Source: a virus
Taxonomy: Duplodnaviria > Heunggongvirae > Uroviricota > Caudoviricetes
Strand: one strand, 5' to 3'
Length of the DNA: 52,480 nt
Virus record (IMG/VR): IMGVR_UViG_2740892112_000005
In this document: positions 4,552-32,096 of the stretch, one piece after another
Numbering within the stretch: the stretch's first letter is position 1
Layout of the letters: each line of letters starts with the position of its first letter
Position numbers and translations under genes: made by a program
The notes under the pieces: generated by a model
Database searches by the model: none
Told to the model about the DNA's origin: nothing
The model's input: only the letters and a program-made list of their open reading frames with translations

Positions 4552-7500
4552 TCAGCTAATCGTGATGCCTGCAGTGGCTTTCTTCATCACAACAACCAGC
4601 AAATCGCTGATACTTGCTGTGGGATACCAGCCATTTACCCACCATGCTGATACAGAAAACTCCAGCGTCATGTGACCGCGACCAGCAGGCATATCAATAA
4701 CACCACTGTAAACCAGCGTATTATCCAGCGCGGTACGGTTATAAATTTCAGCACCGTTTTTCTTCACTATCAGGCGGCATGACGAATAAGTATCGCTGTT
4801 CTCCCGCTCATGTCTGGCACCGCTGAAAGCCACCGCCGGAATAACAATCTGCCGGTTAAACGGCTGATCGTCATAAACCCTGACGGTAATGGTTCCTGAT
4901 GGCCAACGCTCCGGTGCACGGGAGTCACGAGGGAAAGCCTTACCCACTGTTTTAACGAGATCGCCTTCAATCTGGTTTGCAGACAGTTTCCCTCTGATGA
5001 CACAGTTCTCGTTAATGGTGACATTATTGAGCGTGCCGGTATTCGCCGTGATGGCTCCACTGATATCCGCATTGCGGGCTGTCAGCCTGCCATCCGGCGT
5101 CAGGGAAAACGTCGGAGGATTGCCGGATGACGTGATGCTCACCGCAAACAGTCGCTTCAGGAACACGTCGTTCATGAACAGCTGATTCCCCTGCGCCACA
5201 AACAGCGGCGTGGTGTTGCCGTTCTCCGGGGTAATCATCGCAATGCGATCGGCCTGCAGCAGAATGTTACTCAGGGTCTGACCATCAACATCCTCAATCC
5301 CCGCGCCAATCCCGGCCACATAGGGAATACCGTTTTTTGTTTTCTGCACCTTCAGCATATACATGGCATTCAGCTCATTGCGCGTGTCTGACTGAACCCG
5401 CTGGATTTGCTGTATGGTCACGGCCTGGTCACCCAGCTTTTTATCCGTGGTCGAGGTAATTTCACTCCCTTTTTTATCCACGTACTGGCGGACCTGTGCT
5501 ATCTGTCGGGCGTTTTCTGACTGCCCCTGGCTGACAGTCTGTGAGATTTCACTGCTCACCCGGTCCACTTTCTGGCTCACCTGCGCGATGGCCAGTGTCT
5601 GGTCCTCATTCTTTTTCGCAACCAGCTGCGTGAGGCTGTTTTCCGCCTTCCCGATTTTCCGGGTCACTTCTGCGATATCCGTGTCCATCCGCTGACGGAT
5701 ATCTTCTTCCAGTTGCGTGACCTCCGTACGCAGCGCTGAAGCATCAATGCGCTCTTTCAGTGCCTGGCCCAGAAGCGTCTCATCTATCAGCCCCCGGAAA
5801 ATTTCCAGATACCCTTCACCATCATTGCTGGGCTGCCCGCTGGCTTCCACAAAAGCAGATTTTCCCACCAGGTTGACGCTTCGCACGTAAAACCAGAAAT
5901 CCGTCCCCGGCTTAATCCGGCTCCCCTGGACAGTCCACTGACTGCCGGTCCCCAGATAACGGGCAGATTTTTCCACCTGTGCTGTGTTCGTGATGCGTTT
6001 TTCTGAGAACCAGAATTCAAACTGTACCGTCGGGTCATACACCGCAAGACGCGGGACCGCCGTTATCTGAAAATACCCCGGCGTCAGTTCAATGGTGGCG
6101 GGTTTTGCTGGCGCGTTAATCCGGAAGGTGGTGGTGGCCGGTTCGCCCTGCTGGCCATAACTGTTAATCGCCCTGACCGTCAGGGTGTATTCCCCCAGTG
6201 GCAGGCCACTGAAACGGTGCTCCGTATCGGCAGTGATGGCGGTGGTCACCAGTCTGGCATCCGCTCCCTTACCACTGGTCAGGCGCAGACTGAAGCGCAC
6301 ACCCTTCACCACCCGCGGCGTGTCCCATTTCGCCTGCGCCAGATACTGGCCGTCAGCTGCGCTCACCTCCACCGTCAGGTGCTGCACTGCCGGTGGGATG
6401 ACGCTGTTCAGGGAACCTGACTGCGGCTCAAAGCGGGCACCGTTATCCACGATGGCTTCTTTTTCCGGTACGTGCTGCACCGCCGTGATGGCAAAGGTGC
6501 CGTCCGTGTTTTCCCGGACGGAGACACAGCGGAACAGGCGACGGCGCAGTGACGGCAGGGAGAGTCCCCACACCCCGTATGTCTCCACACCATCAGGCAG
6601 GGTACTGACCTGTATCCGGTCCGGCGCGGGGTGTTCGGTGATGTCCACACTCACCGGCTTACCACTGCCGTTAATCAGGTTCACCGTGGCGGCACCGGTC
6701 TCCGGCAGTGTCACTTCACGGTCCAGCGTCAGGGTGCGGGTGGCAGCATCAATGGACAGGACACGTCCGCCGGTCAGGGTCCCGGCATAGTCGTTATCAC
6801 AGATTTCAATGATGTCACCGGGTGTGTGCCGCAGCCCCTGAGACCCGAGCGTGAAATCCACCGTCTGCGTTTCCAGCAGTTCGGTCTTTATCACCCACAG
6901 CCCGGCACGGTGGGCCTGACCGCGGCTGGTACAGCCGAACGCGTCCATCTTCAGCAGGTTGCGTCCGTAGCGCAGTATGGCTTCCGGGTCTTCCACCAGT
7001 TCCGTGGATGTCTGCCAGCCGTTCTGCGGGTCGGTGTAATTCACCTCCACCGCCGTGTGCCGGTCCTTCAGGGCACTGAAGCTGTAGCGGAATCCCACGC
7101 CGTTATCATCCACCACCACATCGCTGTTGGTGTACGGCCACACCACATCCGACGGGCGGTCCTGAACGAACGTCAGCGTCTGACCGTTCCATACCGGCAT
7201 ACAGCGCATCGCAGAGCAGAAATCACTGAGAACGTCCCACGCCTTACGCTGTTGTGCCAGGTACGCATTAAAGGTCATCCGCGGCTCGGTCCCCCCGAAA
7301 CCATCCGGGACCGTCTGGTCGCAGTACTGCCCGATGGCATACAGCGCCCACTTGTCCACATCCGCCGCCCCCAGACGTTTTCCCATGCCGTAGCGCGGGT
7401 GAGTCAGCATGTCCCACAGACACCAGGCCGGATTGTTGCTGTATGCCGGTTTCAGACTGCCGTCCCAGATACCACTGTACGTGCGTTTTTCCGGGTCATA

Positions 7501-25294: not shown

Positions 25295-25519
25295 TCAACA
25301 CACTGGCTGTAATGCAGCGGATACCATGCGGCATTTAGCGGCATTCATCGTACACTCCACGGTTAGCTCTTCATTCGTGGCATTCACCTGAAAGGTCCGG
25401 GAGTGTAATTGCGTACATTTACCACTGAACGAACCTTCAACAAGAACACGACCACGCTGCAAAATACGGAACGGAATTGTTCCCTGAAAAGGTTCTACGG
25501 TTACCCGTAATTTCTTCAT
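25295..25519 (-). CDS. hypothetical protein downstream of Rz
   Basis: 74-aa ORF overlapping Rz stop; no motif recognised. Confidence 0.3.
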
Positions 25520-26010
25520 GTATCCTCCGGATAATAAAAAGCCAGCTTAGTGCACTGAGTGCGGATATATTCCTGCGCCCCTTCCAGCTGCTTCTGCATT
25601 GTCATCAGCCGTTCTCTGAGGATGAAATAATCCCGTTCAGCGGTGTCTGCCAGTTGGGGGCCGGTTGCATTATCCACGCGGGCGGTGCCGGTGGCTTCAC
25701 GCACGGGACCTGGACAGGTGGCGTTGATACGCAGGCGCTTACGACCAGCGGCAACGTCAGCGCGAAGAGTTTCATTTTCAGCTCTCGCATCGGCTAATTC
25801 CCTCGAGTATTTTGCATCGAGCGCAGCAACATCACGCTGACGCATCTGCATGTCAGTAATTGCCGCGTTCGCCAGCTTCAGTTCTCTGACATTTTTGTCG
25901 CGCTGGGCTTTGTAGGTTATGGCGTTATCACGGTAATGATTCAGCCCCAGACTAAGCGCACCACAGGCCACCAGCAGGGCAATGATGACCACGCACAGTA
26001 CGCGGTTCAT
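25516..26010 (-). CDS. Rz: i-spanin Rz
   Basis: N-terminal TM then ...[17 protein letters not shown]...[26 protein letters not shown]..., very close to lambda Rz. Confidence 0.9.
25605..25790 (-). CDS. Rz1: o-spanin Rz1 lipoprotein embedded in Rz in +1 frame
   Basis: Lipobox ...LPLVVSAC, proline-rich [27 protein letters not shown] like lambda Rz1. Confidence 0.75.
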
Positions 26011-26308
26011 TTCACCACCAGCGTATCTGACCGATGAAATAACCGGAGGCCATAATCACAAACACCAGCCAGATAAGAATGAACTTCCAGGTGGATAATT
26101 TTTCAGCCATCACTCGAATCTCCCGAATCAGTTTGCTAAAATCAAACACACTTTCTCCTTTGACTTTTCCAGAGTCAGGAAACACAAAACCCCGCTTGCA
26201 GCCAACAAACGGGGTTTTTACTTTTATTCACTTAGTTTTTGTCAGTTCGCAGGATTTCGTGTTATCCGTCCGTGTGAGCAAACCGCATTTTTCAGCAAAA
26301 TATTCTGC

Positions 26309-26842
26309 TTATCTGTCAATTCCCCAGCACGCCAGCGCACTCTCCTGGTCGCGACGGGATACCTGACCGTAACAGTTGTTTGAACGAATACGGCAGTCTC
26401 TGCCACCGTCCTTAATCCACCAGCGAATCGCTTCGCAGGCACCTTTTCGATCACCTGCATTAATTCGTCTGTAAAACGTCGACGGGAAACACTTACCGGG
26501 ACCAATGTTGTACGGACAGAATGACGCGATCCCCGCTTTCTGGGGTTCGGTCAGTGGCACTCTGATGTTTTTCTCCACCCATGCCAGCGCCTTATCACGC
26601 TCAATGGCGTTAACCCGGTCGCATTTTGCCTTCGACAACTTCATGCCTGGAACAACAGGTTTACCATCCACCATGATGGCACCACGGCAGATGGTCCAGA
26701 TCCCCGCACCATCACGGTATGCCGTGGTGTGGTTACCTTCCTTTTCATCCAGAAACTGGTCGAGAATGTCAGGCGCAGGCGCACCAGCGGCAATCAGCGC
26801 CAGAACGGCAGCCGACAGGCCGTATCTGATTTTTGCGTTCAT
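26309..26842 (-). CDS. R: SAR endolysin (phage lysozyme, GH24-type)
   Basis: N-terminal weakly hydrophobic Gly/Ala-rich signal-anchor, E...D...T catalytic spacing (DEKEGNHTTAYRDGAGIWTICRG). Confidence 0.85.
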   Translation of the reverse strand: MNAKIRYGLSAAVLALIAAGAPAPDILDQFLDEKEGNHTTAYRDGAGIWTICRGAIMVDGKPVVPGMKLSKAKCDRVNAIERDKALAWVEKNIRVPLTEPQKAGIASFCPYNIGPGKCFPSTFYRRINAGDRKGACEAIRWWIKDGGRDCRIRSNNCYGQVSRRDQESALACWGIDR

Positions 26843-26905
26843 GGATATTTATCAGGATTTATCGGTTTCTGCCCACGGACAGGTTTATCTGTTCCGGTCA
26901 GTGAA

Positions 26906-27256
26906 TTAAGGTTGTGATTCCGGTGGAGTCTTCAGAGAACCAGTAATTCTTCCCGGTAGATTTCCTTTGTAGGTTATCCATACATTCTGCGCCTCTAAAA
27001 TCACGGGGCGCTTTTCCGGCAACGGTTCGTTCCCTTCACATAACCCGGCAGCAACATCCATGAAAAACTGCTTCGCCTGCTTTTTCGCCTCAGCTTCGTA
27101 AAACTCCAGCGTGGCACCTTCAGTACGGTCAAGACTAATAGCCACATCTGGCAACAACAGTGACGGATACCCACCAACTTCCAGTGCCACAGTAACAGTA
27201 ATCTTATCCGGGTAATTATTTATCCCTTTAACAACCAGTTCGTATTTTTTCTTCAT
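26906..27256 (-). CDS. hypothetical protein inserted between holin and endolysin
   Basis: 116 aa, soluble, no motif; 4-nt gap from pinholin stop. Confidence 0.45.
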   Translation of the reverse strand: MKKKYELVVKGINNYPDKITVTVALEVGGYPSLLLPDVAISLDRTEGATLEFYEAEAKKQAKQFFMDVAAGLCEGNEPLPEKRPVILEAQNVWITYKGNLPGRITGSLKTPPESQP

Positions 27257-27260
27257 CGCT

Positions 27261-27476
27261 TTACTCTCCCCGCGCCGCCTTACGCCGGTCCTCTCTGATT
27301 TTGAAATACAGGTTAGTCAGATATGTCAGCAGCCCAAACAGCAGACTCCCCAGCACGCCTATTGCCGCCCACTGAGACGGGGAAACCCTGTCCAGCAACT
27401 GCAGGAACCAGTAGCCCGTTCCCACCGCTGACGTGGTGTATGACACACCTGTTGTGATTTTTTCCATCTGGTACAT
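27261..27476 (-). CDS. S: class II pinholin (phage 21 S-like)
   Basis: 71 aa from internal start MYQMEK (dual-start motif); ...[51 protein letters not shown] nearly identical to S21. Confidence 0.85.
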
Positions 27477-27552
27477 ACCCCGTCTCCCGTTATCCGGAAG
27501 CTCACAACAATATAAAGACCACCGGCACACACCGATGGTCCCTTGCGCAGGC

Positions 27553-27798
27553 TTACATCATCATGTCGCTGTCAGGTGTGGGTTCACCGCCATCTGAAGC
27601 ACTCCCGTCACCCGCGATACCTTCCGGCTCCGGAACCGCTGGTACGCCCAGCAGCTCATCCAGAATGGCATCCACTTCTGCATCAAGACGCGCCTCAAGG
27701 TTCTGGCGGAGTTTCTGTTTCAGTGCACTCCGGACTTCTTCAGAGCGCAGGACTTCCTTCACTGCCTCAGCAGTGACCAGGGATGTGATTTCTGACAT
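27553..27798 (-). CDS. small acidic hypothetical protein upstream of lysis cassette
   Basis: 81 aa from internal Met MSEITSL... Confidence 0.35.
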
Positions 27799-27835
27799 GG
27801 GATTTTCTCGTTGAAAGGTGTTGTCAAGAAAGTGA

Positions 27836-28018
27836 CTACGGAATGAGCGGATCTTCGGGTTTGCTTCCGGCTGACTGACTGGCGCTGATTCTCTCAGCGG
27901 CCCTTTTATCAATCTGCCTGCGCCAGAAATCGCGCACTGCCCTGTACCCACCCGAAAGAAGATACATAACACAGACTGCCGTACAGAAGTACAGCATCAC
28001 CTGATGAATAAATGTCAT
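27836..28018 (-). CDS. small membrane protein (one TM, basic C-terminus)
   Basis: 60-aa ORF with hydrophobic N-terminal segment. Confidence 0.3.
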   Translation of the reverse strand: MTFIHQVMLYFCTAVCVMYLLSGGYRAVRDFWRRQIDKRAAERISASQSAGSKPEDPLIP

Positions 28019-28153
28019 AATTTCTTACCGTTATGGTTGACAATGAGAACTGTTTTCATTTAAAAAACCGATATACGAAAGCATCTTTTCTTTACATTCT
28101 CCATTGGAATTACCTCCGCCAGCGTCCATTCCTGCCGCTGGCGGCTTTTTTTA

Positions 28154-30115
28154 TCATGCCGCGATGTCCGCGTTGTTCACTTCCACCTTCACACTGTCAA
28201 TCAGCAGCGTATATGTCGCCGCCTTTGATATGCCTGTCAGTTGCAGTTTGTCCGCCGCCCCTGATGCCGGAGATTTCACCAGTGTGAACGGCGTCCCCCG
28301 TTTCTCATCCAGTACCGGCGTCACCTGAATGCTGTTGTTTCCGGCAAACTCAAAAGCCAGTGTGTGCCATCCGTTATCAAAGACCCCGAACGTATCCAGC
28401 TTCGCATTCGGCTTCTTGTGGTGCATCGCGTTCAGGTTCGTCGCATCCGTCTGCAGGAAGAAGGACATCAGCATGTCGTTGCCTTCCTCTGCCAGCGTCA
28501 CTCCCTCCGGCAGGGACGACAACTGCCAGTAAATGCCCAGGGCAAACTGATTCGGCACCAGTGAACCCGGCAACTTAAACCGTACGCTCACACGTCCCCC
28601 CTTCTTCAGTAACTCCACTCCCTGTCCGGCTGCATCATGCTCCAGAAACCAGATGTGGTTTTCCGGTTTATTCAGTTGCAGGGCCTTACCTCCCGTAGCC
28701 CCCGCATCACTGACCACCGCTTCAGCAATGTTTTTGTTAACATTGTCTCCGCTCGCCGGTTTGTGATAATAGCGCCAGCCCTGTGATGCCAGGTCTTCGC
28801 CGGACGCCAGCAGACTCATCAGGGTTCGGTTACTGACCGGGGCTTCCGGCTCTCTCTCCGTACCTTCACCGGAAGGTCCGGTGGGCTTCACCGTATCAGG
28901 CTGTTTTCCGGTAATGAATTCAGCGTTTCTCCCGGCATGCACAAGAATCGCCGTTGCCAGACGGTCGGAAATAATCCCACGACGTGCCCATGATCCAAAA
29001 TGCGTTTTACGGTCAGCCGTCGTCCAGGTTTTGGCGTCCGTTCGACCACCGGCTCCGTAATACCCAATATCCGCAACATCCGGATCTTCTGACGGCTCGT
29101 TGGTACCCACATTTCGCCCGTTTTCATCCGTCATAAACGGCACAAAGAAGATTTTTTTTGCGGATTTCGTCTTGTATGCACCATACACCGCATCGTATTG
29201 CGAAGAATAAGTCTGCTTCCAGTAGTAGGTCGTGTCGCCACAAATCCAGGGAACCGATGACGGAGAGCCCCCGAGACACTGACCTCCGAATTCCGACAGG
29301 TCAGAACGATATTTTTCCACCATGGAATCAAACAGCCCCGGCTGAGTGGCGTATGCACCCTGTTTCAAATCAAACTCGCCCTGCATCCAGACCACTGCAA
29401 GCAGAATATTTTTAGGGTTGGCCTTCAGTGCGGCCTGAGTACGGGTAAGCAGGTCCTTGTACAGTGGCTTATCAACACCCCAGCGTGCCGAGGTCTCGCT
29501 TGCGCCGGTGGATTCGCTGAAGGTACCTTCATCGCCCGCCAAAAATGCAGAACCACCACGGCAGCACGGAACCAGAAGAATACCGGCATTCGCCGGAATA
29601 AACGGCAACAATTTCTTCGCGATATGTAATCCCTGCCCCACGCATCCATACTGAGCTGCGCTGGCTTTCGGGTGTGAAAACTTACTCAAATCCTGAACAT
29701 CATGCAGGCAGTGGTCCGCAGGAATAATGTCATTGTAGTTACAGGACGCACCACCCGGCGTGACAGTGCTGCGACGCGCCAGCTGTTTAATACGCGGGTC
29801 CGGACGGTCATATGTCTCCGGCAGCGGAAGCCCTTCACCATACGCCATACCGTTTGACTGCCCGGCCAGGGCAACAACAAAGTAATACTCCGGGTTGCTG
29901 GTGGTGCTGATAACTGCGCCTTCTCCATCCGACGGCTTCACCACCACAGGTGTGGTGACATCACCTTCCGCCGCAATGGCCTGCATCAGGGTATAAGGCG
30001 TGATGGCCACCGGACTGCCAAATGGCTGCCACCCCTCCTTCAGTTTTTGTGTCAGTCGTTTCGCAAGGTCTGACGGCGATGCCGCCCTGACAACATCATA
30101 GTGTTTAAATGCCAT
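28154..30115 (-). CDS. nanS-p: prophage-encoded sialate O-acetylesterase-like protein (nanS-p / YjhS-like, as found downstream of stx in Stx phages)
   Basis: 653 aa; SGNH-like esterase N-terminal segment (…VALAGQSNGMAYGE…); position between tRNA/stx slot and lysis genes. Confidence 0.75.
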   Translation of the reverse strand: MAFKHYDVVRAASPSDLAKRLTQKLKEGWQPFGSPVAITPYTLMQAIAAEGDVTTPVVVKPSDGEGAVISTTSNPEYYFVVALAGQSNGMAYGEGLPLPETYDRPDPRIKQLARRSTVTPGGASCNYNDIIPADHCLHDVQDLSKFSHPKASAAQYGCVGQGLHIAKKLLPFIPANAGILLVPCCRGGSAFLAGDEGTFSESTGASETSARWGVDKPLYKDLLTRTQAALKANPKNILLAVVWMQGEFDLKQGAYATQPGLFDSMVEKYRSDLSEFGGQCLGGSPSSVPWICGDTTYYWKQTYSSQYDAVYGAYKTKSAKKIFFVPFMTDENGRNVGTNEPSEDPDVADIGYYGAGGRTDAKTWTTADRKTHFGSWARRGIISDRLATAILVHAGRNAEFITGKQPDTVKPTGPSGEGTEREPEAPVSNRTLMSLLASGEDLASQGWRYYHKPASGDNVNKNIAEAVVSDAGATGGKALQLNKPENHIWFLEHDAAGQGVELLKKGGRVSVRFKLPGSLVPNQFALGIYWQLSSLPEGVTLAEEGNDMLMSFFLQTDATNLNAMHHKKPNAKLDTFGVFDNGWHTLAFEFAGNNSIQVTPVLDEKRGTPFTLVKSPASGAADKLQLTGISKAATYTLLIDSVKVEVNNADIAA

Positions 30116-30297
30116 GAATCCTCCCGGCCGGGATAATATTGTGAGTAAAATAAGGAGCGGGCTGAAGTCCGGAAGTTACAGGACAATGGCAGAAGAGAGA
30201 CGACAGCCCGCAATTCGAAAAAGACCGCGCAGTTGCGCAGCCTTATGAATTCTGGTTAAAATCCATTCGATTATAAAAATGTATATCTCATGCTGTT

Positions 30298-30322
30298 GCC
30301 CGAACCCACTCGGGCTTTTTTT
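30298..30322 (+). terminator. intrinsic terminator on + strand
   Basis: GCCCGAACCCACTCGGGC hairpin followed by TTTTTTT. Confidence 0.4.
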
Positions 30323-30590
30323 GCCCACAAGAAAGCCCCTCCGGAGAGGGGCTAAAGCCGCGTATCTGTATCATCATGCACATGGTGCCGGGTGCCTCCC
30401 GGTGAGTTCAGCCCGGTGCCACTAAACCCGCGTCATTCTCGTTTTGATAATCAGAGATTATACCGTCACCAGTCGCCCCTCCGCTCAGGGGGATTCACCA
30501 TGCGAAATTTTTTTAACAAATGCCCAGTCTGACAGGCAACTGTCAACTTACTGAATTGTGAGCAACATAGCATTTAACGGGGAACCTGTT
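30315..30590 (-). repeat. structured non-coding module, copy B (paralogue of 30815-31075), ending in an intrinsic terminator
   Basis: Shares with copy A the blocks CATGGTGAATCCCCCTG.GCGGAGGGGC, ACTCACCGGGAGGCACCCGGCACCATG and the terminator AGCCCCTCTCCGGAGGGGCT + U-run (- strand). Confidence 0.5.
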
Positions 30591-30599
30591 TTCTGCAGT

Positions 30600-30627
30600 A
30601 AAAAGGCCCACCGGAGCGGATGGGCCT
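30600..30627 (-). terminator. intrinsic terminator on - strand
   Basis: GGCCCA...TGGGCC hairpin followed by TTTTT on - strand. Confidence 0.4.
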
Positions 30628-30814
30628 GGAAGGATAGCGGTCATGTGATGCCGGTTTCCCGGTAACTCAGCACCGGTATCTGAGTCAACGTTTTCTCTAC
30701 TGGGTCATTTCCGATACGCCCTGCCTGCTGACAGGCTTTCATCACATCTGAAAATATAGCACCCTGACTGATACTGTAGTACCTAAGGTTCCAGAAACTG
30801 TGATGTATCCGGCA

Positions 30815-31075
30815 CAGAAAAGCCCCTCCGGAGAGGGGCTGGAGAGTGGCACTATGTGCCATTGCATGGTGCCGGGTGCCTCCCGGTGAGTTCAGTATCA
30901 GCACCTGAACCCGCACAGAAAGGATAAGGGTCGGTGACAAAACACCAGTTGCTGATTGCCCCTCCGCACAGGGGGATTCACCATGCCAGTTTCTTTTAAC
31001 AAACTCCCCGCAAACCAGACAACAGTCAACCGCCTGAATTGTGAGGTATTTAAAAATTTCAACGGGTAACTGATA
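30815..31075 (-). repeat. structured non-coding module, copy A, ending in an intrinsic terminator
   Basis: See copy B; terminator hairpin at 30821-30840 with U-run on - strand. Confidence 0.5.
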
Positions 31076-31080
31076 CCCTG

Positions 31081-31233
31081 CTAATCGCCTGATGCTTTCT
31101 TTTTCAGCAACGGGAAAGCAACAACCACCACACCCGCCACCAGCACACCGTCAGCCAGCACTGACATTATCCGGCTGCTGAAGTCCACCATCACCACCAG
31201 AAACAGCAGGAGCGCAACCACAGCCAGACGCAT
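31081..31233 (-). CDS. 50-aa hydrophobic peptide (two predicted TM segments), 8 nt downstream of TerB-like gene
   Basis: MRLAVVALLLFLVVMVDFSSRIMSVLADGVLVAGVVVVAFPLLKKKASGD; weak RBS, below the 60-aa ORF-track threshold. Confidence 0.3.
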   Translation of the reverse strand: MRLAVVALLLFLVVMVDFSSRIMSVLADGVLVAGVVVVAFPLLKKKASGD

Positions 31234-31241
31234 TTTTACCG

Positions 31242-31673
31242 TCACAGATGATTCTCCAGACGAAGGCCCAGAACACCGGCAATCTCTTCCAGCACCTTGC
31301 GCTCTTCCGGCTCTATTTCGCCGTCTGCTTCGGCAATGGCCACCGCCACATCCAGCACGTCTTCCGCTTCACGCGTATCGTGTTTCACATCCTCGATCTC
31401 ACGTAACGCCGCACGACGACCAATTTTAAAGTTCGTATCCAGCTGACCGATAATGGTTGCGCTAATCGCATTAATTTCTGACGTAAACGCGGACAAGGTG
31501 GGCTGGTTACGTAATACCTGTTCGATCTTCGCTTTCTCGGAAGCCTCACATTCACCATCGGCATAAGCCACCAGGTATGCAGCGTTAATCACTGCCTGTG
31601 CCAGATCGCGTTTTTCAAACTTTTTAATTTCCGCAGACGCTCTGCGGGTTTTCTTTTTGAAGATTCCAAGCAT
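31242..31673 (-). CDS. TerB-like (tellurite-resistance TerB domain) protein
   Basis: 143 aa from internal Met with AAGGAA RBS; paired motifs ...AVINAAYLVAYADGECEASE... and ...VLDVAVAIAEADGEIEPEE... typical of TerB-like repeats. Confidence 0.55.
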   Translation of the reverse strand: MLGIFKKKTRRASAEIKKFEKRDLAQAVINAAYLVAYADGECEASEKAKIEQVLRNQPTLSAFTSEINAISATIIGQLDTNFKIGRRAALREIEDVKHDTREAEDVLDVAVAIAEADGEIEPEERKVLEEIAGVLGLRLENHL

Positions 31674-31843
31674 TGTGACGTTCCTTTGGGTGGGTGAGCC
31701 AACGCCCGGGAGCGATCTGCCCACAGAGAAAGTCACACTGACCACTCCGTAAGCTCACCCCCGAAAGGCTCTGTGGTTGATATGCGCCGGGCGTGGCGCG
31801 GATACAAAAAAGGCCCGCAAAAGCGAGCCGGGAAAAATAAGTC

Positions 31844-31920
31844 TGGCGCGTTGTACTGGATTCGAACCAGTGACCGATTGCTTAGAAGGCAATTGCTCTG
31901 TCCGGCTGAGCTAACAACGC
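31844..31920 (-). tRNA. argO: tRNA-Arg (anticodon UCU)
   Basis: Cloverleaf folded by hand: GCGTTGT acceptor, anticodon loop CTTCTAA, T-loop TTCGAAT, 3' CCA encoded. Confidence 0.85.
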
Positions 31921-31934
31921 AGAATGCCGATAAA

Positions 31935-32011
31935 TGGACCGCCATCGAGGACTCGAACCCCGCGCAACCAGCTTCGAAGGCTGGCGCTCTATCCCGATGA
32001 GCTAATGGCGG
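31935..32011 (-). tRNA. argN: tRNA-Arg (anticodon UCG)
   Basis: Cloverleaf folded by hand: anticodon stem CCAGC/GCTGG, loop CTTCGAA, T-loop TTCGAGT, CCA encoded. Confidence 0.8.
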
Positions 32012-32020
32012 TATGTGATA

Positions 32021-32096
32021 TGGTGGCCCTTGCTGGATTTGAACCAGCGACCTGGCGATTATGAGTCGCTCGCTCTCACCACTGAGCTAAAGGGCC
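32021..32096 (-). tRNA. ileZ: tRNA-Ile2-like (anticodon CAU, ileX/ileZ-type)
   Basis: GGCCCTT acceptor, anticodon loop CTCATAA, very similar to E. coli ileX; cannot exclude elongator Met identity from sequence alone. Confidence 0.8.

Follow-up and report, generated by a model that had tools for sequence, protein, structure and literature searches.

The gene lying between the pinholin gene S and the SAR endolysin gene R in the 52,480-nucleotide stretch of phage DNA analysed here (the window) is, with near certainty, a member of the YdfR/DUF1327 family, restricted to Escherichia and Shigella and carried in a variable slot between the S21-type pinholin and SAR endolysin genes of lambdoid prophages. 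Pfam, RefSeq and the K-12 annotation already record the gene under this family name and at this position, and the 116-aa gene is an ordinary, very common member of this named family.

Results

A DUF1327 gene within a lambdoid lysis cassette

The minus strand of the window is organised as a typical lambdoid late region, running from tRNA genes through esterase, DUF1378, DUF826, S, the 116-aa open reading frame (ORF) and R to Rz/Rz1. The following features are referred to below:

31844-32096, minus strand: three tRNA genes, called by ARAGORN as Met(CAT), Arg and Arg (PGAP calls the first one Ile)
27261..27476, minus strand: S21-type (P21-type) pinholin S, 71 aa, with dual start M1/M4 (PF04971, E 9e-33)
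27257..27270, minus strand: left junction, consisting of GGGAGAG (a Shine-Dalgarno sequence within the final holin codons), TAA and a 4-nt spacer
26906..27256, minus strand: YdfR/DUF1327-family gene, 116 aa, an ATG-start ORF (Pfam PF07041; PHROGs)
27038..27256, minus strand: module A, the DUF1327 core, residues 1-73, predicted by AF2 as three beta strands and one long helix
26921..27019, minus strand: module B, the tail PEKRPVILEAQNVWITYKGNLPGRITGSLKTPP, residues 80-112, with a low-confidence model
26843..26865, minus strand: right junction CCGATAAATCCTGATAAATATCC, abutting the R start on its upstream side, without a Shine-Dalgarno sequence
26309..26842, minus strand: SAR endolysin R, a phage lysozyme, 177 aa (PF00959, E 5e-24)
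26186..26218, minus strand: intrinsic-terminator-like hairpin between R and orf45, a 14-pair stem followed by a T-rich tail
26012..26149, minus strand: small membrane-protein ORF (orf45), 45 aa, with a GTG start at 26149 (phrog_6632, E 5.5e-20)
25516..26010, minus strand: Rz spanin (PF03245, E 2e-49)
25605-25790, minus strand: Rz1 lipoprotein gene, embedded in Rz (PF06085, E 6e-21; lipobox LVVSAC)

An earlier interpretation made from the DNA letters alone (the sequence-only reading) had placed a soluble 116-aa protein at 26906..27256 between pinholin and endolysin, 4 nt after S, and its position, neighbours and gap all proved correct. The holin stop codon TAA (27263-27261) is followed by the 4-nt spacer AGCG and the ATG at 27256, and a spacer of 63 nt separates the 116-aa gene from R. 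Solubility was likewise borne out: with a pI of 5.5 and a maximum Kyte-Doolittle hydropathy of 1.16 in a 19-residue window, the protein shows no transmembrane segment by this measure.

The same reading had called the protein unrecognised and devoid of any recognisable motif, which is incorrect. It scores 152.8 bits (E 3e-45) against Pfam DUF1327 (PF07041) over residues 1-112, where the cut-off is 25, and it matches PHROGs 406, 2091 and 1085, none of which has an assigned function; NCBIfam gave no match. Over its 2.4-kb lysis region, the window matches chromosomal prophages of human E. coli isolates, ABU 83972 among them, with 100% identity, and identical copies of the gene in E. coli chromosomes carry the NCBI/PGAP name "YdfR family protein". 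One further candidate relative, P0141, a 3093-aa repeat protein that scored E 3.5e-15 through 19 TVTVT/DLEF-rich repeats, was judged a compositional match and not a DUF1327 relative.

The K-12 member of the family, YdfR (b1555), is encoded in the Qin cryptic prophage in the same order as in the window: essQ, a 4-nt gap, ydfR, rrrQ and rzpQ. The K-12 holin EssQ is 79% identical to the window holin and the endolysin RrrQ 88% identical to the window endolysin, whereas the two DUF1327 proteins align in BLASTP at 46% identity over residues 1-78 (E 8e-24) and have unrelated C-termini. The K-12 tail comprises 31 residues unrelated to module B, and its stop codon overlaps the rrrQ start, in place of the 63-nt spacer of the window.

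A confidently predicted core and a low-confidence tail model

AF2 models residues 1-70 with mean pLDDT values of 74-91 in blocks of ten residues, while residues 74-115 fall below 50. In a 183-aa A+B+C relative, modelled to see whether the tail would gain order, its pLDDT was still <50. Foldseek searches against the PDB and BFVD returned nothing at E ≤ 1e-3, and a sequence-profile search of the PDB nothing at E ≤ 1. Structural hits resembling double-stranded RNA-binding domains (dsRBDs; alpha-beta-beta-beta-alpha fold) were taken as probable noise, given the small size of the beta-beta-beta-alpha unit and, in particular, the acidity of the protein. None of the structural and sequence searches pointed to a function.

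Coding constraint and expression

In module A, pN/pS is 0.48 in frame, the two remaining frames giving 0.76 and 1.04, so that the 116-aa frame is under purifying selection and is real coding sequence. Module B gives a pN/pS of 0.55 with a pS of only 0.10; because pS is so low, the near-invariance of this module points mostly to recent shared DNA and not to strong protein constraint. Module B is also found behind a different N-terminus, in protein P0146. An alternative-frame ORF (MDNLQRK...) overlapping the 3' end of the gene was rejected, as it is short, occurs in 5 of 30 aligned variants and has an out-of-frame pN/pS of ~1.

We detected no promoter-like site for the 116-aa gene on the coding strand of the window and no terminator after it, the 63-nt spacer folding no better than shuffled sequence (z -0.83). 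Since this search found no promoter for the gene, which starts after a gap of 4 nt and has its Shine-Dalgarno sequence inside S, we infer that it is made together with S from the Q-dependent late transcript, its start being coupled to the holin stop. The protein is small and acidic and has no predicted transmembrane segment or signal peptide; together with the lack of an own promoter, this suggests that it is probably a cytoplasmic late protein.

A second terminator-like hairpin, with 13 pairs, was seen at 27514-27543 on the minus strand, in the gap that separates DUF826 from S. Further upstream, 28154-32096 on the minus strand has a layout like that of Stx phages, in which the tRNA genes are followed by a SASA/NanS-p-like esterase (DUF1737 + DUF6645), DUF1378 and DUF826. 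In the annotation of the matching ABU 83972 prophage, the tRNAs are followed by TerB-family and DUF3927 genes, and no toxin gene is listed. The Rz1 gene is absent from the annotation of the matching RefSeq record. A search of 25400-28200 against Rfam gave nothing above the gathering score.

Neighbouring lysis genes and the R-Rz interval

The endolysin has a Gly/Ala-rich, SAR-like N-terminus, and its E35-x8-D44-x5-T50 triad can be read directly from the translation. In the S21 system, the long form of the holin, S71, serves as antiholin; through the dual start of S, the cassette of the window already encodes an antiholin of its own.

Between R and Rz, the sequence-only reading had noted a 32-aa hydrophobic ORF and a bidirectional hairpin. 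The ORF exists, but the 32 residues are better read as the C-terminal part of orf45, which starts at the GTG at 26149, has a strong Shine-Dalgarno sequence, AAAGGAG, 5 nt upstream of that codon and ends 1 nt before the Rz ATG. Its maximum hydropathy is 2.13, with a C-terminal transmembrane segment, and its match to phrog_6632 spans profile positions 14-45 of 45. PGAP does not annotate orf45; we found it in 53 phage records and at about 27 of the surveyed loci. Homologues occur in Salmonella phage SPN3UB, in the same R-Rz slot (67% identity), and in Pseudomonas phages, in the tail-gene region (50%). The hairpin is present as described; its terminator-like fold is strong when the lysis strand is folded (-21.6 kcal/mol, z -4.4), weaker for the opposite strand (-14.4 kcal/mol, z -3.1). 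Q antitermination would be needed for late transcription to pass it. Together, the hairpin and orf45 look like an inserted module, and many related cassettes are without it.

DUF1327 is common beside S21-type holins and narrow in host range

A scan of 5426 complete E. coli genomes located DNA resembling the DUF1327 gene at 6735 places, spread over 3159 of the genomes, a single genome having as many as 8 copies. DNA of S21-type holins was located at 13418 places in 4296 genomes, which gives about one DUF1327 gene for every two S21-type holin loci. In the deposited phage genomes, DUF1327 is present in 101 and the holin in 434, the DUF1327 carriers including Stx1a and Stx2c phages, H-19B, BP-4795 and mEp460. 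The sequence-only reading had left room for the gene to turn out to be a common, already characterised lysis-cassette component. Common and named it is, being present at about half of S21-type holin loci, but it is not functionally characterised.

We also surveyed 80 prophage contigs from IMG/VR, picked for near-identical holins and hence biased towards query-like holins, of which ~78 loci were informative. The gene after S was a DUF1327 gene at 55 of these, an unrelated gene of 185-213 aa at about 12, and R directly at about 11. The view that S and R are normally adjacent is therefore reversed for E. coli prophages, where adjacency is the minority arrangement, and the comparison of synteny across S21-type cassettes shows DUF1327 after S as the commonest state in the survey and not as an unusual insertion.

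An exhaustive HMMER pass over 1.84 billion protein representatives yielded 57 hits, many of them fragments. A scan of one genome per species found eight DUF1327 loci, six of them in Escherichia/Shigella (E. coli, E. ruysiae, E. albertii and Shigella) and two on contigs of metagenome-assembled genomes (MAGs). As judged from these searches, the family is confined to Escherichia/Shigella. The two MAG contigs, binned as Veillonella parvula (L087) and as Bacillota (L089), carry a Qin-like essQ-ydfR-rrrQ arrangement essentially identical to that of E. coli, and their placement probably reflects binning contamination from E. coli.

A variable slot with fixed junctions

At every locus inspected, DUF1327 lies directly downstream of an S21-type holin; in the window, K-12, phages Evi, PhiR42_1 and mEp460, and genome loci L083-L090, it also lies upstream of the lysozyme gene. 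Whether the gene after S is DUF1327 or R, nearly every surveyed locus has its start 4 nt past the stop of S, with deviations of 1-3 nt in a few cases, and the same Shine-Dalgarno sequence serves whichever gene follows. On the other side, CCGATAAATCCTGATAAATATCC-ATG is conserved before R in most loci with an occupied slot and has no Shine-Dalgarno sequence; where R follows S directly, a strong GGAGAG site is used in its place. This suggests that endolysin translation may differ between the R-adjacent and the R-displaced arrangements.

Between these junctions, the surveyed DUF1327 proteins are between 72 and 328 aa long, and the spacer to R varies from negative (gene overlap) to 881 nt. Four modules can be distinguished: A, the DUF1327 core (residues 1-73); B, the tail (residues 80-112); C, a coiled-coil segment; and D, of ~120 aa. 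They are combined as A+B (27 loci, including the window), A (9), A+B+C (8), C+D (8), A+B+C+D (6; 296 aa), A with the K-12 tail (5) and A+B+D (3). Module A is the sole part common to all family members. In the longer, 183-aa and 296-aa forms of YdfR (phrog_2091, phrog_1085), modules A and B are 85-100% identical to those of the window and the left junction is shared; these forms add the coiled-coil module C and the ~120-aa module D, whereas the window copy ends after B. The S-R interval is thus a slot of variable content between fixed junctions, and its proteins are mosaics of the four modules.

The alternative occupant of 185-213 aa (MNHEEMNQRFSRLENEIAELNKKL...), which has no Pfam match, was seen at loci L002, L011, L017, L021, L040, L061, L064 and L072. 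The coiled coil at its N-terminus shares homology with the segment by which the 183-aa and 296-aa DUF1327 forms are extended at the C-terminus. One of these loci (L002) additionally has a divergent 75-aa DUF1327 copy (Pfam E 2e-8).

The DUF1327 gene lies outside the minimal lysis machinery and is dispensable for a minimal cassette, since near-identical S and R genes also occur in cassettes that lack it.

Discussion

What the protein does may be approached through its K-12 relative. A recent study (PMC13232886, 2026), the sole functional study that we found in the literature on DUF1327 and on ydfR with holin, used RNase G as bait in a bacterial two-hybrid screen and recovered residues 1-72 of K-12 YdfR. 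A signal was also obtained for the full-length protein with Rne 1-597, the only Rne construct to do so, and Rne 1-598 co-eluted with Strep-tagged YdfR (PMC13232886). DNase-resistant nucleic acid co-purified with YdfR, although, according to the authors, the RNA may have come from a contaminant; overproduction altered few transcripts, and ydfR had almost no reads in standard growth (PMC13232886). By analogy with these results, we tentatively suggest that the window protein might use module A to bind the RNase E of its host late in lytic growth. The DUF1327 core would dock on the catalytic N-terminal half of RNase E, and possibly also on RNA, and the protein would act as a late-phase modulator of RNA decay rather than as a regulator of holin or endolysin, with the exchangeable C-terminal modules tuning the activity of the core or adding other ones.

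A functional analogy may be drawn with other small phage proteins that target host RNase E, namely T4 Srd, phiKZ Dip and T7 gp0.7. All three are phage-encoded RNase E binders, and T4 Srd also binds the N-terminal half of the enzyme. Several observations speak against our proposal. Binding to RNase E is reported for K-12 YdfR only (PMC13232886), so that the mechanism is borrowed from a paralogue with 46% identity in the core and a different C-terminus. A pI of 5.5 is unusual for a direct RNA binder, and the position of every inspected DUF1327 locus after an S21-type holin would also fit a holin-directed role. Our explanation as a whole, comprising identity, slot, expression and mechanism, is one that we regard as likely, a judgement weighted mainly to identity and genomic role and not to RNase E.

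A holin-directed role would make the protein a cytoplasmic regulator of lysis timing, an acidic protein whose target is either the pinholin, at its basic cytoplasmic C-terminal tail, or the SAR endolysin in its membrane-tethered form, and which so delays or sharpens triggering. We consider this unlikely. Such a reading rests on position: all inspected DUF1327 loci adjoin an S21-type holin, almost always through the 4-nt coupled junction, and the gene would be co-expressed with S in a fixed order. The cytoplasmic antiholins T4 RIII and P1 LydB, likewise small, soluble and encoded near lysis genes, offer a model for it, but no homology between them and the window protein was detected in Pfam, PHROGs or NCBIfam; nor did these resources give any homology to holin regulators or any match in a lysis category. 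The Keio ydfR deletion scored as envelope-leaky in a CPRG screen (Paradis-Bleau et al. 2014, PMC3879167), but empty wells score within the same range in the CPRG table of that study (PMC3879167), and in our judgement the phenotype is maybe a polar effect of the kan cassette on rrrQ. In addition, the dual start of S already supplies an antiholin, near-identical S and R occur in cassettes that lack the gene or hold an unrelated one in its slot, and a hypervariable slot with many truncated forms is unlike what would be expected of a tuned regulator.

The same variability could instead mark decay, with the 116-aa A+B protein a truncated remnant of an A+B+C+D protein of up to 296 aa, kept by its linkage to the lysis genes and contributing little or nothing. 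The nested series A, A+B, A+B+C, A+B+C+D and C+D, with lengths of 72-328 aa and spacers from overlap to 881 nt, fits such a history, as do the moderate purifying selection (pN/pS about 0.5), the tail without a confident model and the many database entries that are frameshifted or duplicated. Yet in-frame pN/pS is clearly under the out-of-frame controls, A+B is the commonest architecture (27 loci), functional phages, among them Stx phages, BP-4795 and mEp460, carry the gene, and its start, Shine-Dalgarno sequence and frame are intact across thousands of genomes, all of which makes a decaying passenger improbable. Loci that diversify by shuffling of this kind often encode conflict-related functions, and a moron-like cargo protein for anti-defence or superinfection exclusion would also suit the shuffled modules and many alternative occupants of this hypervariable slot and the narrow host range of the family. 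The anatomy of the gene is at odds with the moron that the sequence-only reading had listed among its candidates: it lacks both a promoter and a terminator of its own, and its start codon and the holin stop are coupled. With the 4-nt gap to S, this would mean late-only expression, too late for most anti-defence roles and silent in a repressed prophage. K-12 ydfR also had almost no reads under standard growth (PMC13232886). PADLOC, a library of defence and not of anti-defence proteins, gave no match at E ≤ 0.1. An anti-defence or exclusion function therefore strikes us as very improbable.

The survey offers a framework for work on either RNase E or lysis timing: the junctions of the slot are fixed, the slot itself is hypervariable and modular, and adjacency of S and R is the minority state. 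The DUF1327 gene is among the most abundant E. coli phage genes without an assigned function, is present in several copies in Shiga-toxin-producing strains, and shares its late transcript with the adjoining lysis genes that control the release of toxin and phage. In its broadest form, which we hold to be doubtful, the proposal is that the core may be a phage-borne RNase E docking module with exchangeable modules B, C and D, representing a previously unrecognised class of late RNA-decay modulators. If docking on RNase E were true, this class would be co-translated with the pinholin in about half of E. coli S21-type cassettes and would diversify by module shuffling.
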